Shown: positions 8,627-61,478 of the stretch, one piece after another | How the letters are laid out: the number at the start of each line of letters is the position of its first letter | Numbering within the stretch: position 1 is the stretch's first letter | From: Enterobacter phage CC31 | DNA: 64,000 nucleotides | Direction: 5' to 3' (one strand) | Sequence record: NC_014662.1 | The notes under the pieces: generated by a model | Seen by the model: the letters and a program-made list of their open reading frames with translations, nothing else | Database searches by the model: none | Told to the model about the DNA's origin: nothing | Made by a program: the position numbers and the translations under genes

Positions 8627-8656
8627 GATTTTTTCCTCATTAGTTTTGATAGGGCT

Positions 8657-8686
8657 ATAGTATCATAGCCCTCAAAGAAAGTAAAC
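8657..8686 (-). promoter_or_regulatory. T4-type early promoter with embedded 8-bp inverted repeat
   Basis: minus strand GTTTAC (plus 8681-8686), about 18-nt spacer, TACTAT (plus 8657-8662); palindrome AGGGCTAT/ATAGCCCT at 8651..8672 spans the -10. Confidence 0.5.
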
Positions 8687-17165: not shown

Positions 17166-17630
17166 TCACAGTTTATTGAGATTTACTTTGATGCGCTTAC
17201 GTTTCTTTGGTAGGGTCTCAGGACCTTTATTGACGATTGCTCCGGTTGTGGTACCAGAGGCGATATTCTGGACACTTCCACCGGAATCTCCGGCTACCAT
17301 GTCCTCGAACAAGGGAAGAGCCTCAAATATCTCTTTTTGTTCGGATTCAGTGATATTGTAACGTGAAGCTACTGCTGACCATGCACTCATCATGGATGCT
17401 ACTCCATTGAGTCCTGGGACAGTTGTTAACATTCTTTTGATTGAACGCACAGATGCGTGGAAAGCAGTATAAGATGCTTTCTCTTCTGGAGTAGTAGGTC
17501 GCTTCAGAACCGTACCCTTTTCATCGATTATCTTGGCTTCATATGCTTTCCATTCAGTGAATGGTTTTTGCATTAGCCTGATAAACTTATACGCATAAAC
17601 GGCGTCAATACCGCTTTTAATAGTTGACAT
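17166..17630 (-). CDS. hypothetical protein (61.1 position)
   Basis: 154-aa ORF. Confidence 0.55.
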   Translation of the reverse strand: MSTIKSGIDAVYAYKFIRLMQKPFTEWKAYEAKIIDEKGTVLKRPTTPEEKASYTAFHASVRSIKRMLTTVPGLNGVASMMSAWSAVASRYNITESEQKEIFEALPLFEDMVAGDSGGSVQNIASGTTTGAIVNKGPETLPKKRKRIKVNLNKL

Positions 17631-17645: not shown

Positions 17646-17846
17646 TTATCGTTTAACACAGACGAATTTAGCAGAGGTTGAAAAATCGCGAGCAGAAGTG
17701 CGCCACTCTTCACCAGCTTGATTGCACAGTTCTTCAGCAGTTGGACCAGTTTGAGTAGGTTTAAACTCAATTTGGTTCATAGCGACTCCGCCATGTTCAC
17801 TAATAAGAGTCATGATTAAAATAAATGTGCTCATCGTTTCATCCAC
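17646..17846 (-). CDS. hypothetical protein
   Basis: 66-aa ORF with hydrophobic N-terminus. Confidence 0.4.
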   Translation of the reverse strand: MDETMSTFILIMTLISEHGGVAMNQIEFKPTQTGPTAEELCNQAGEEWRTSARDFSTSAKFVCVKR

Positions 17847-18166
17847 GCGTTAAAAATGTCATCATCACTACCGGTATAATCCAATCGCTCTTCAAAGGAT
17901 TCGCAATCAACACAGATTACTTCAATTCCTTCCCAGAGCAAATCATCGTCAATACCAGATTCCCAGGCAGAATCTTTAGCTAATTTTTCAATCAGCTGTT
18001 TTGTCAATTTTTGACCTTGATGAACGAAGCTAGACTCAAATGACAAATCTACTTTAAGTACTCTTTTAAAGATATCATAATGAACTGAACCGCATTCGCA
18101 CCCACACTCATCGATGAAACGAATTAACCCTTGGTGTTCATCACAAACAGCTTTCATTTTGTACAT
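17831..18166 (-). CDS. hypothetical Cys-rich protein (61.2 position)
   Basis: 111 aa; CDEH...CGCECGS and CVDCES motifs. Confidence 0.5.
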   Translation of the reverse strand: MYKMKAVCDEHQGLIRFIDECGCECGSVHYDIFKRVLKVDLSFESSFVHQGQKLTKQLIEKLAKDSAWESGIDDDLLWEGIEVICVDCESFEERLDYTGSDDDIFNAWMKR

Positions 18167-18357
18167 CGTCTTTCCTGCTCTATTTTAATTGCGACCAATA
18201 CTAAGCCTTTACGATAAGATTCGCGAGGGTCTGCTGGAAATCCCCAACGAGTAAGGCCAGTGTCAATTTCACGTTCAAAACGTAAACGAAGCTGAGCTAG
18301 TTCAGCATCATGATAATCTACAAGGTCTCTGCCTTCAAAAATCATAAGCCAATCCAC
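18154..18357 (-). CDS. hypothetical protein
   Basis: 67-aa ORF. Confidence 0.45.
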   Translation of the reverse strand: MDWLMIFEGRDLVDYHDAELAQLRLRFEREIDTGLTRWGFPADPRESYRKGLVLVAIKIEQERRCTK

Positions 18358-18623
18358 TCTAACACTTCTGGAACAGAAGCATTTTCACAATACAGATTTG
18401 TGCCAGCTACTACCAGGTCACTTTCACCTAGGTCTTCGATGAGCATCTTCTGATTCTTATCTGCACCAGCTTCAAGGTCATGAATCAGCTTAGGCTTAAC
18501 TTTGTCCCAGTCGCCTTCAACGAACTTGATGCATGGAATTGATGTGTAATCTGCTTTAGCCATAGCTGGAACAGCGGAGCAAGATGATATAGCAAAGATT
18601 AGTGCAAGTACAAGTTTTTTCAT
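18342..18623 (-). CDS. periplasmic protein, Spackle (Sp)-like by position and signal peptide
   Basis: 93 aa; signal peptide MKKLVLALIFAISSCSAVPAMA resembles N-terminus of T4 Sp; mature part diverged. Confidence 0.55.
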   Translation of the reverse strand: MKKLVLALIFAISSCSAVPAMAKADYTSIPCIKFVEGDWDKVKPKLIHDLEAGADKNQKMLIEDLGESDLVVAGTNLYCENASVPEVLEWIGL

Positions 18624-18632
18624 TTTGAAACC

Positions 18633-18914
18633 TTACGCATGCTTGACGTTAGTTAAACGAATGAGACGATAGTCATCGTTTTCTAAAGTTGTTACACCAA
18701 TTGTTACACCACCGTGTTTATCGTTAAATGGAGGAATAACTACAATAAGCGTTTTTCCAAGCTCAAGAGCTTCTCGGACAGGTCCTGTGCACTCTAGCTT
18801 AGCATCATCGGACTTAACCACTAAGGTTCCCGGAAGGCAATCCTTGATTTCAGCCTGTGGTTTAGTGTTATCGTAAGTGTTACGAACGACAAGAAGCATT
18901 TGATTCAATTTCAT
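18633..18914 (-). CDS. hypothetical protein at the dmd (61.5) position, not Dmd-like
   Basis: 93-aa ORF immediately upstream of gene 41 with its own early promoter; no similarity to recalled 60-aa T4 Dmd. Confidence 0.55.
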   Translation of the reverse strand: MKLNQMLLVVRNTYDNTKPQAEIKDCLPGTLVVKSDDAKLECTGPVREALELGKTLIVVIPPFNDKHGGVTIGVTTLENDDYRLIRLTNVKHA

Positions 18915-18943
18915 TTTATTTTCCTCATTTTGTTGATAGGGCT

Positions 18944-18973
18944 ACTATAACATAGCCCTACCAGAATGTAAAC
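18944..18973 (-). promoter_or_regulatory. T4-type early promoter with embedded inverted repeat
   Basis: minus GTTTAC (plus 18968-18973), TATAGT (plus 18944-18949); palindrome TAGGGCTA/TAGCCCTA at 18937..18960. Confidence 0.5.
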
Positions 18974-18975
18974 GG

Positions 18976-20418
18976 TTAGAATTTGAGGTCTTCAGCCAAT
19001 GCATCGAGTTTAGCTCTTGCACTAGCGTTTTGTTCAACACGAGTCATTCGGTTACCTTCTGCAACTCGTTGCTGAGCACCGGAAGTCTCTTTGACTGAAG
19101 TCGGTTGTTCACCATGTTCTTGAGCGATTTCAACCCAACGCTGATTGCCTTTACTTACACCAATCAAGAACTTATTGTTGATGTTCTTATCGCCGTAACG
19201 AGACTTAATCTGCTTAATGAGCTGTTGTCCTTGTTGAGCAAGTTCCTCAGTTTCAATTACCGCTAGCATAAAGTCTGCTGTTGCTGGTAGACCTGCGGAT
19301 TCTGCAACATCACCCATAGAAATATCAGAAGCATCCCAACCTGAACGAGTTGTCTGAGCTGCTGTCCACAGAACAGTTTCAGATTCAACAGCCAATGCAC
19401 GAAGTTCTTCTGCAATAGCTTTAACTAATGTGTAGCTGTTTTCGGTGTAAACTTTAATACGACAAGAAGCGCAGATACCCAGATAGTCAATAATGATGAC
19501 ATCAGGAACGAAGTTCTTCTTAAGTTTAAGTTCATTCAGTAATGCACGGAACGTATTTGCATGAGCTCCACCAGTTGGATATTGCTTGATAATCAGACGA
19601 CCAAGAGTATTCTTTGAGCGCCATTTTTCCATCTTGCCTTTGTATTCAGCATATGAAACGTGACCATCGTCAATATCATCCAGTGATACATCAAGTAAGT
19701 TAGCATCGATACGTTTTGCACAAACTTCTTCTGCCATTTCCATGGAGATATACAGAACGTTCTTACCCATCTGAAGATAGTCAGCAGCAAGAGAACACAG
19801 ACCTAATGACTTACCGACGTTTACACCTGCGAGTAATACGTTCAGAGTGCCGGTCTCTGCACCGCCTTTTGTGATTCTGTTCAGAATATTGAGTTTGAAT
19901 GCAACCTTACGAGCTTTGTTTTGATAAGCTAACCAACGAGCCTCATGGTCTTCCATCCAATCATGACCAATGTAACTATCAAATGAAATTGACAGAGCAG
20001 CTCGCATGATGTCCGGAATTGCACCTACATCAGGAAGTTTTTTGTTTCGCTTTTCTGGTGGAAGTTGGGCGTTAGTCTGAATTTCAATAATCTTTGATGT
20101 TGCATTGTACATCGCAGATTCTTGAACAAAGCGTTCAGTTTCAGCTACGAGCCAGTTTAAATCTTCTGGAGTATCTTGAAGCTTATTAATTAACTCACTT
20201 GCGCCCTGTACTTCAGTTTCAACTAATTGACTATTATCCAAAGCCACTGCCAATGCAGTTTTACTTGGAACAGCTTGATATTTTAATACGTGCTGATGAA
20301 TCAGTTTGAAAACATTTTTGGCTGGGCCATGTTCAAAATACTCATCTCCCATATAAGGCCAAACCTTCGAGAAGAAGGCTTGGTTATACAGCAAATGAGA
20401 TAAGATTGTTTCTACCAC
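18976..20418 (-). CDS. 41: replicative DNA helicase (DnaB-like)
   Basis: 480 aa; near-identity to recalled T4 gp41 over long stretches (LLAGVNVGKSLGLCSLAADYLQ, IDANLLDVSLDDIDDGH). Confidence 0.93.
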   Translation of the reverse strand: MVETILSHLLYNQAFFSKVWPYMGDEYFEHGPAKNVFKLIHQHVLKYQAVPSKTALAVALDNSQLVETEVQGASELINKLQDTPEDLNWLVAETERFVQESAMYNATSKIIEIQTNAQLPPEKRNKKLPDVGAIPDIMRAALSISFDSYIGHDWMEDHEARWLAYQNKARKVAFKLNILNRITKGGAETGTLNVLLAGVNVGKSLGLCSLAADYLQMGKNVLYISMEMAEEVCAKRIDANLLDVSLDDIDDGHVSYAEYKGKMEKWRSKNTLGRLIIKQYPTGGAHANTFRALLNELKLKKNFVPDVIIIDYLGICASCRIKVYTENSYTLVKAIAEELRALAVESETVLWTAAQTTRSGWDASDISMGDVAESAGLPATADFMLAVIETEELAQQGQQLIKQIKSRYGDKNINNKFLIGVSKGNQRWVEIAQEHGEQPTSVKETSGAQQRVAEGNRMTRVEQNASARAKLDALAEDLKF

Positions 20419-20428
20419 GGGAACCTCA

Positions 20429-20818
20429 TTAAAATAGTTTGAAACGTTTTTTCTTTCTCATAATATCGGCATGAGCCTGTTGAATTTGTATTTTAATACA
20501 TTTTTCAACATGTGGTGCAAGGTCGGCTTTTCGTGATTCGTCCAACGTAGAGAACTCTAGTGACACCTGGCCGCTTTCATCCAAGTGTAATGAGGTAACA
20601 TATACGATATGTTCTTCGCCGTCCTCTAGTGTTATCAGGATTTCCTGGACGACATTCTCCATAGCCTTTTGGATTATCTCAAGACTCTTTTTGAACATCC
20701 GTTCGGTTCTTTCAAATTCCCCCTCCGAAGAGGGGGTTTCATCTTGAACTTCAACATCAGTCAAATCGAGGTCTAAGTCCTCGAAATTATTCTTCATCTT
20801 CGTAATTTTCCAGTTCAT
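20429..20818 (-). CDS. hypothetical protein at gene 40 position
   Basis: 129-aa ORF between uvsX and 41; start uncertain (ATG 20818 or 20797). Confidence 0.5.
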   Translation of the reverse strand: MNWKITKMKNNFEDLDLDLTDVEVQDETPSSEGEFERTERMFKKSLEIIQKAMENVVQEILITLEDGEEHIVYVTSLHLDESGQVSLEFSTLDESRKADLAPHVEKCIKIQIQQAHADIMRKKKRFKLF

Positions 20819-21953
20819 CTTCGATTGAAGCTGGAGTTGCTCTTACTTCGCCTTCCGGAGCATGGAATTCTTCGGTCTTCGAATTAATCAGAGCATCAAC
20901 TTCTTCATCTACCACTGCGTTGGTTTCAATAGCACCCAACTGATAGCGGTTCTTAATTGCATCACGGAATGGCTGATGTTTAAACAGAGGACCCCAGAAT
21001 GCGGTGCTTGAAGTATCTTTTGCACGCCATGATTTCTCTTCGCGAACCATTTCACCGGTGTCTACGTCCAGATATTCACGAGCGTACCAGCCATTTTTAG
21101 GTTTAACTACAAAACCAAGTTCCAGCGCCATATCTAACAGACCAGAGTAAGGGTCAATACCACCATCGAATTTAACATCGATGAAGAACTTACTCTTCTC
21201 TTTAACAGTACGAGATTTCTCAGCGTTCAGAACAAACTGATAACCTTGAAGGTCTGTACCATCTTTAATTTGACGTTTACCGATGATGAACACAGTATCT
21301 GCTGAGTACATTGGGCCAGTACCACCAGTCATTACAGTCTTACTGAACATCTCAATTGTTTCGATTGTGTGGTTAACCGCAACGCATGGAATGTTTTTGA
21401 TAGAGAAGTAAGGTGTAACAATACGGAACAGAGACTTCAGTGATTTCGCACGAGTCATATCCGCAACTGATTTTTCGTTCAGAGCATCTTCTGTTTCTTT
21501 CTTAGAAGCCAGGTTACCGATGGAGTCGATGAATACGATAACTTTCTCACCGCGTTCAATTTCTTCCAGCTGATTTACCATGTCAATCTTAAGCTGTTCA
21601 ACAGATTGTACAGGAGTGTGTACTACACGGTCAGGGTCAACACCCATTGCACGAAGATATGCTGGAGTGATACCGAATTCTGAGTCGTAGAATAGACAAA
21701 TAGCATCCGGATATTTTGTCATATAAGCGGAAACCATAGTCAGACTCATATTTGACTTGAAGTGCTTTGACGGACCCGCAAAGATTGTTAAACCTGATTG
21801 CATGCCACCATCTAATGCACCTGAAATCGCGATATTAAGCATCGGAATCTTAGTACGAACTACATCCTTTTCATTGAAGAATTTGGATTTATCCAGAGAT
21901 GCGGTCATTTTAGAAGTGGATGCTTTAATCAGACGAGATTTTAAATCAGACAT
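20787..21953 (-). CDS. uvsX: UvsX recombinase (RecA-like)
   Basis: 388 aa; N-terminus MSDLKSRLIKASTSK and GPSKxFKSN Walker A region match recalled T4 UvsX. Confidence 0.93.
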   Translation of the reverse strand: MSDLKSRLIKASTSKMTASLDKSKFFNEKDVVRTKIPMLNIAISGALDGGMQSGLTIFAGPSKHFKSNMSLTMVSAYMTKYPDAICLFYDSEFGITPAYLRAMGVDPDRVVHTPVQSVEQLKIDMVNQLEEIERGEKVIVFIDSIGNLASKKETEDALNEKSVADMTRAKSLKSLFRIVTPYFSIKNIPCVAVNHTIETIEMFSKTVMTGGTGPMYSADTVFIIGKRQIKDGTDLQGYQFVLNAEKSRTVKEKSKFFIDVKFDGGIDPYSGLLDMALELGFVVKPKNGWYAREYLDVDTGEMVREEKSWRAKDTSSTAFWGPLFKHQPFRDAIKNRYQLGAIETNAVVDEEVDALINSKTEEFHAPEGEVRATPASIEDELENYEDEE

Positions 21954-61428: not shown

Positions 61429-61448
61429 TCTCCTTTGTTGATAGGGCT

Positions 61449-61478
61449 ATAGTATCATAGCCCTTGGAGAAAGTAAAC
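61449..61478 (-). promoter_or_regulatory. T4-type early promoter with embedded 8-bp inverted repeat
   Basis: minus GTTTAC (plus 61473-61478), TACTAT (plus 61449-61454); palindrome at 61443..61464 identical to the 8651..8672 copy. Confidence 0.5.

Follow-up and report, generated by a model that had tools for sequence, protein, structure and literature searches.

Phage T4 carries a run of small genes between its replicative helicase gene 41 and its primase gene 61 (same-strand order 41, dmd, 61.4, sp, 61.2, 61.1, 61). According to published work on T4, Dmd (60 aa) blocks RnlA/LsoA, TifA (the 85-aa product of 61.4) blocks ToxN, and the nearby 61.2 product AdfA blocks DarT; dmd and tifA form a two-gene operon driven by an early promoter upstream of dmd. 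Srikant et al. regard the region as a possible anti-toxin-antitoxin (anti-TA) island, the other genes of which are attractive antitoxin candidates. Here we describe the gene that occupies the position of dmd and tifA in Enterobacter phage CC31, an open reading frame (ORF) of 93 codons referred to as ORF93, which lies in a stretch of 64,000 nucleotides of sequence record NC_014662.1 (the window). By all sequence comparisons made, ORF93 is orthologous to neither Dmd nor 61.4/TifA, and its locus behaves as a cassette whose deep allele classes are exchanged by recombination at conserved flanks.

A second body of work concerns the promoters found in such regions. The promoter-early stem-loops (PeSLs) of T4-type phages combine an early promoter with an attenuating stem-loop; they cluster ahead of orphan ORFs in hyperplastic regions and have been implicated in modular shuffling (PMC2839356, PMC4122927). 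Promoters of the T4/PST class follow the consensus TTTACW-N17-TAYWAT (PMC4122927), and stems overlapping the -10 box constitute one of the two commonest PeSL subclasses (Arbiol et al. 2010; Comeau et al. 2014). The locus examined here is of this known type, an orphan gene headed by a PeSL in a plastic region of a T4-like genome, and ORF93, already annotated as a hypothetical protein, is one of the many uncharacterised small early genes of such a hyperplastic region.

The gene between 41 and spackle

The window belongs to a T4-like genome of the genus Karamvirus, with which Enterobacter phage CW742 and Erwinia phage COW86c share 97.6 % identity over the 5-kb stretch around ORF93. On the minus strand the genes follow in the order uvsX, 40, 41, ORF93, spackle, four small ORFs and primase 61, with ORF93 as the head of the small-gene cluster lying between helicase and primase. 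The order 41, PeSL, ORF93, sp thus parallels the order 41, PeSL, dmd, tifA, sp of T4. The original prediction had assigned ORF93 to the dmd position, upstream of gene 41. The gene does sit there, but the T4 interval holds both dmd and 61.4/tifA under one promoter, and with respect to transcription ORF93 lies downstream of 41, being upstream only in plus-strand coordinates.

ORF93 extends over 18633-18914 (minus strand), from an ATG at 18914-18912 to a TAA stop at 18635-18633, and a Shine-Dalgarno motif, GAGG, can be read directly from the sequence at 18926-18923, 8 nt ahead of the start codon. Its conserved upstream flank is gene 41 (18976-20352, minus strand), identified by the ORF call and by annotation in relatives, and the 61-nt gap between the two genes holds the promoter and its palindrome. 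The conserved downstream flank is sp (18342-18623, minus strand; Pfam T4_Spackle, 5e-30), which starts 9 nt past the stop codon of ORF93 and probably shares its transcript.

ORF93 is a genuine protein-coding gene. Its product is 100 % identical to UniProt entry E5DI46, an uncharacterised protein of Enterobacter phage CC31, and the homologues in close relatives carry hypothetical-protein annotation. The ratio of nonsynonymous to synonymous substitution rates (dN/dS) within allele classes is 0.03-0.15, which indicates purifying selection. The possibility that ORF93 is not a real gene is ruled out by this ratio together with its conservation and its confidently predicted fold.

Relation to Dmd and TifA

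Of the two T4 proteins, Dmd (gene 61.5; PDB 5HY3_B), which neutralises the HEPN toxins RnlA/LsoA, resembles the ORF93 product in being small and soluble and in being encoded by the first gene after 41 behind an early promoter of the PeSL type. This likeness is positional, Dmd sitting in a cluster with proven counter-defence genes; the two proteins differ in length (60 against 93 aa) and share no sequence or profile similarity. TifA, for its part, is encoded immediately before spackle and is of similar length. Both the TifA and the ORF93 families vary between phages, a variation which for TifA is thought to tune specificity.

The shared slot, the same kind of promoter and a length (93 aa) near that of TifA (85 aa) could all be read as marks that ORF93 is orthologous to Dmd, or to the adjacent 61.4/TifA, and has diverged strongly, but we consider this exceedingly improbable. 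BLASTP gives no meaningful resemblance to T4 Dmd (E=0.44), as originally predicted, and no alignment at all with T4 gp61.4; tblastn was negative as well. A Pfam scan of ORF93 returns nothing at E≤1, neither Dmd (PF17587) nor DUF7279 (PF23945), although the same scan recognises T4 Dmd at 1.6e-46, gp61.4 at 2.3e-20 (DUF7279) and even the Dmd of Marfavirus Potts1, which is only 36 % identical, at 9.3e-8. The three proteins fall into separate PHROG families: ORF93 into phrog_27384, of unknown function (E=2.4e-44, residues 1-93 against profile positions 2-92 of 92), Dmd into phrog_2102, to which ORF93 has no match at E≤0.1, and gp61.4/TifA into phrog_2375. When the ORF93 family is compared by hhalign with alignments built in this analysis, the probability is 0.3 % both for a diverse set of Dmd proteins (E=0.23, 10 columns) and for gp61.4/TifA. 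The solved Dmd chains, 5HY3_B and 5I8J, are not among the best structural matches of the ORF93 model. Finally, TifA binds RNA through a C-terminal helix that bears clustered basic residues and is preceded by a conserved PT motif (PMC10853763), whereas ORF93 has neither this motif nor a basic helix, its C-terminal half being β-strand.

Nor is a counterpart of these genes found elsewhere. A six-frame search with hidden Markov models of Dmd and TifA, run with filters off, covered the window and a further 110 kb (64-174.6 kb) of COW86c, which at 97.6 % identity stood in for the rest of the genome, and yielded nothing below E=0.7. This lineage therefore contains no detectable Dmd or TifA. The original prediction that ORF93 is not orthologous to Dmd thus held in each of these comparisons.

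By tblastn, T4 Dmd matches 829 of 50,697 phage records, nearly all of them from Escherichia, Shigella or Yersinia phages. The gene is not tied to the position after 41 and has other genomic places in Mosigvirus, Krischvirus and Marfavirus. In Mosigvirus APCEc01 it is found at 165.9 kb of the record after a hypothetical ORF, with gene 41 not shown adjoining, and a TifA homologue still follows it directly; in Krischvirus GEC-3S it is located at ~60 kb, and in the Marfavirus phages Potts1 and Clarke_MM3 between a modA-like ADP-ribosyltransferase gene and srd.

Promoter and stem-loop

ORF93 is preceded by a PeSL (18934-18973, minus strand), which is recognised from a promoter scan, RNA folding, conservation, repetition and the literature, and from which the gene is predicted to be transcribed early. 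The predicted promoter comprises a -35 box, GTTTACA (18973-18967), a 17-nt spacer, a TG extension, and the -10 box TATAGT (18949-18944), with 10 of 12 consensus matches and the TG. Written as TTTACA-N17-TATAGT, it conforms to the T4/PST class. A generic promoter scan of the region is not enriched over shuffled sequence (6 found, 7.5 expected), and the promoter call rests instead on agreement with the T4 early consensus, on conservation and on repetition in the genome.

The palindrome has its arms, TAGGGCTA and TAGCCCTA, at 18960-18953 and 18944-18937, and the -10 box is carried by the loop and the 3' arm. In RNA it extends to a 12-bp stem (18963-18952 / 18945-18934) with a folding energy of -19.2 kcal/mol (z=-6.4 against shuffled sequences). 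The window has 16 GTTTAC-type promoters, at least four of which carry strong hairpins, and none is stronger than this one. The predicted start of transcription should lie at ~18937, within the 3' arm, so that the hairpin would form only in read-through RNA from gene 41 and not in ORF93's own transcript. It was rejected as a canonical intrinsic terminator because no U-tract follows the stem. An Rfam scan of 18300-19300 revealed nothing credible.

This arrangement is repeated. The window holds three copies of a 26-nt core, GGGCTATGnTAnnnTAGCCCTATCAA (8646-8671, 18933-18958 and 61438-61463, all on the minus strand), where none is expected by chance. Every copy follows a -35 box reading GTTTAC and precedes a small early ORF, and recombination could make use of such repeats. 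At ~50666 (minus strand) there is a fourth strong promoter-hairpin, whose stem differs. The layout is the same upstream of T4 dmd, where an unrelated stem (GACAAGACTA / TAGTCTTGTC) encloses a nearly identical loop, and the architecture recurs with differing stems in T4, HY01, fGh-Ecl01, JD18 and LAL003, while phages of the PG7 type have a weaker hairpin, located in the spacer. An early promoter of its own with a palindrome across the -10 box, as originally predicted for ORF93, is therefore present, the -10 lying inside the palindrome, but it is nothing special to this gene: the element is a PeSL, of a known kind, is shared with T4 dmd, and is an inherited feature of the junction rather than a signature of ORF93 itself.

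Distribution of the family

The ORF93 family is small and limited to a handful of T4-like lineages. Indexed searches of 5.8 billion proteins recovered first 5 and then 8 clusters, and one further true relative (P0016, E=1e-10) emerged when 1.84 billion representatives were searched exhaustively with a profile, which brings the total to about nine clusters among billions of proteins. Five long repeat proteins with CHU_C/T9SS, Ig-like or Lipoprotein_17 repeats (P0017-P0021; E=1e-7 to 1e-3 against the ORF93 profile) were judged to reflect chance and repeat inflation and not homology, since their scores sum one short β-hairpin motif, V-x-V-V-(V/I)-P-(F/Y)-x-(D/N)-x-x-G-x-V, over 4-8 repeats. In IMG/VR the family occurs at 3 loci only. 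By tblastn it is present in 76 phage records, all from phages of Klebsiella, Enterobacter, Cronobacter, Erwinia or Raoultella; JD18 gp015 and PG7 gp034 are also members of phrog_27384.

In every context for which flanking sequence is available, namely PG7, VPA32 and fGh-Ecl01 (Karamvirus), JD18 and LAL003 (Jiaodavirus) and the metagenomic T4-like contig that encodes P0016, the homologue lies after 41 and directly upstream of spackle, at a distance of 0-30 nt. The slot is thus regularly occupied by this family in Karamvirus, in Jiaodavirus and in one more T4-like lineage, and the gene is not a one-off insertion. In the Jiaodaviruses an extra gene of 77 aa (phrog_5421, unknown function; JD18 gp016 at 2115-2348 of locus L005, and LAL003 at 2207-2440 of locus L011) is interposed between 41 and the PeSL of the ORF93 homologue, which indicates that the PeSL travels with the ORF93 family and not with the end of gene 41.

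Allele classes and cassette exchange

ORF93 is the most variable gene of its neighbourhood. Within Karamvirus, protein identity is 96-100 % for gp41 and 99-100 % for Spackle but ranges over 31-100 % for ORF93, which falls into a CC31-type class, an fGh-Ecl01-type class (74 % identical to CC31) and a PG7-type class (31 %). A comparison of the two Jiaodaviruses JD18 and LAL003 gives a similar picture, with 100 % identity for gp41, 41 % for ORF93 and 92 % for Spackle. The divergence is unevenly spread within the protein. The N-terminal 28 residues are only 8-14 % identical between the CC31 type and the other classes and 20-36 % identical among those others, and barrel identity between classes amounts to 38-51 %.

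The limits of the variable segment are sharp. In a sliding-window comparison of CC31 with PG7, nucleotide identity remains at 90-100 % down to ~18966, just past the -35 box, falls to 20-60 % over the spacer, the -10 box and the entire ORF93, and returns to 90-100 % at ~18630, where spackle starts. The comparison with LAL003 is the mirror image: identity to CC31 is 70-90 % inside ORF93 and far lower outside, and the proteins are 82 % (gp41), 83 % (ORF93) and 36 % (Spackle) identical, a pattern which implies that one allele crossed genera. The alignments thus indicate movement of the CC31-type allele between Karamvirus and Jiaodavirus. The original prediction of a replacement cassette is borne out as far as the breakpoints and the cross-genus allele are concerned, but not in the sense of a recent one-off replacement.

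These features agree with those described for PeSL-associated orphan cassettes (PMC2839356, PMC4122927), namely a strong σ70-like early promoter with a stable stem-loop overlapping the -10 box, standing directly before an orphan ORF in an unusually plastic spot between core genes, repeated in the genome, and followed by a gene that differs between close relatives. CC31 was not among the phages analysed in those papers. A difference is that the cassette is bounded by a single PeSL on its 5' side, the 3' breakpoint being the conserved spackle gene, so that exchange looks like homologous recombination in conserved flanks and not like the formation of PeSL-PeSL mini-circles.

The same comparisons bear on the idea that ORF93 assists or regulates Spackle, or superinfection exclusion more generally. 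The family does directly precede sp wherever its flanks can be inspected. However, Spackle is nearly invariant across Karamvirus while ORF93 alleles are only 31 % identical, which means that the two do not co-evolve; Spackle is a periplasmic protein with a signal peptide, which ORF93 lacks; and T4 Spackle works without any ORF93 homologue. We therefore regard such a partnership as very improbable.

Predicted structure

The AlphaFold2 model of ORF93, calculated from an alignment of 8 sequences, is of high confidence (pLDDT, the predicted local distance difference test, 91.8; predicted template modelling score, 0.82). It comprises, in this order, a helix (residues 3-13), one strand, a second helix (45-51) and four further strands. 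The N-terminal helix lies against a small β-barrel (residues ~29-93) that superposes on SH3, Tudor or KOW barrels and places the protein within the SH3-like fold. A second model, of the PG7-type allele (P0006), reproduces the barrel with a pLDDT of 88-96; its N-terminal helix is predicted at low confidence only, and the P0006 input carried a spurious N-terminal extension of 30 residues. Among SH3-like barrels (SH3, Tudor, KOW, PsaE, MIB and BAH core), sequence identity to ORF93 is only 4-24 %, the extra N-terminal helix of ORF93 sets it apart, and none of their ligand-binding signatures can be identified, so the likeness is at the level of the fold only. The protein is soluble and near neutral and lacks a catalytic motif, a signal peptide and any membrane segment, and sequence searches of NCBIfam, PADLOC, Pfam and the PDB gave no matches.

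KOW, Tudor and Sm-type modules bind RNA or DNA, and a barrel of this kind might make ORF93 a nucleic-acid-binding regulator that modulates early phage or host gene expression or mRNA stability. The RNA-binding activity of TifA, the T4 occupant of the slot, points in the same direction. Yet the chemistry of the protein makes this improbable: ORF93 is near neutral (pI, the isoelectric point, ~6.7; net charge ~0), whereas T4 TifA is strongly basic (pI 9.8, charge +7.6), and the family has no conserved basic patch, R47 being the only near-invariant basic residue and R86 largely conserved.

Candidate function

The reading that we favour, as quite possible though short of probable, is that ORF93 inhibits a host defence effector stoichiometrically, and that the gene is, by prediction, a non-essential accessory gene expressed early. 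The protein would act stoichiometrically by binding a host protein, most probably an abortive-infection effector or the toxin of a toxin-antitoxin system; such a target is suggested because Dmd and TifA, encoded in the equivalent PeSL-headed slot of T4, inhibit toxins. The conserved barrel would serve as a scaffold, and the class-specific N-terminal 28 residues together with the variable surface would set target specificity. Deep, recombining allele classes in otherwise near-identical genomes are expected for a factor that has to match variable host components. The lack of a detectable Dmd or TifA in this lineage, and of an AdfA match in the window, fits this reading too. Position, predicted early expression and allele swapping thus make an anti-defence role plausible by analogy. 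In a more far-reaching form, which is possible but doubtful, phrog_27384 would be an unrecognised class of inhibitors of host abortive-infection and TA effectors and the Karamvirus/Jiaodavirus counterpart of dmd-tifA, with allele classes matched to toxin variants by the N-terminal helix and alleles traded via the PeSL and spackle flanks.

Several observations weigh against an anti-defence role. No characterised anti-defence protein resembles ORF93 in sequence or fold, the PADLOC, NCBIfam and Pfam searches were negative, and the SH3-like fold is generic. Spackle, a member of the same cluster, is a superinfection-exclusion protein and no antitoxin, and position alone is for this reason weak and not diagnostic. 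Allele class does not track host genus, the CC31 type being found in phages of Enterobacter, Erwinia and Klebsiella. Deep allele classes with recombination are also seen in genes unrelated to defence.

Many small early proteins of T4 bind and redirect housekeeping host proteins, and ORF93 could be a host-takeover protein of this kind, acting on transcription, replication, proteolysis or metabolism. An early PeSL promoter, a small adaptor-type SH3-like fold without a catalytic site and purifying selection within classes would all fit. However, conserved targets would not obviously favour classes of 31-46 % identity with unrelated N-termini amid flanks of 96-100 %, and the very narrow taxonomic distribution speaks against a general takeover role. 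We hold this alternative to be rather unlikely.

Other genes of the cluster

Upstream of the locus, gene 41 has an alternative GTG start at 20418, which gives a longer version (18976-20418, minus strand), and uvsX occupies 20787-21953 (minus strand). Downstream of spackle, an ORF of 111 aa (17831-18166, minus strand; phrog_28853) has a weak match to a Lar-like zinc ribbon (Pfam E=0.025). CC31, CW742 and COW86c possess it, and apparently VPA32 as well, to judge from position and size; PG7 and fGh-Ecl01 lack it. It forms a second indel cassette within the same 41-61 cluster, and its presence or absence probably accounts for the two classes of megablast coverage, 87 % and 94 %. A further ORF, of 154 aa (17166-17630, minus strand), ends in 38 residues that are 71 % identical to T4 gp61.1 (54 aa). 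T4 61.2 (AdfA, anti-DarT) gave no tblastn match, in a search that covered the 64-kb window and not the remainder of the genome.

Implications

Whatever its function, ORF93 provides a clean example of a single-gene cassette, bounded by a PeSL and with breakpoints sharp to the base pair, that has moved between phage genera. If ORF93 does prove to be a counter-defence factor, the phage antitoxins known so far, few in number, would be joined by a new protein family and a new fold, and the idea of an anti-TA island would reach the Enterobacter and Klebsiella phages that are under development for therapy. In that case the allele class carried at this locus could help to predict the host range of such phages.
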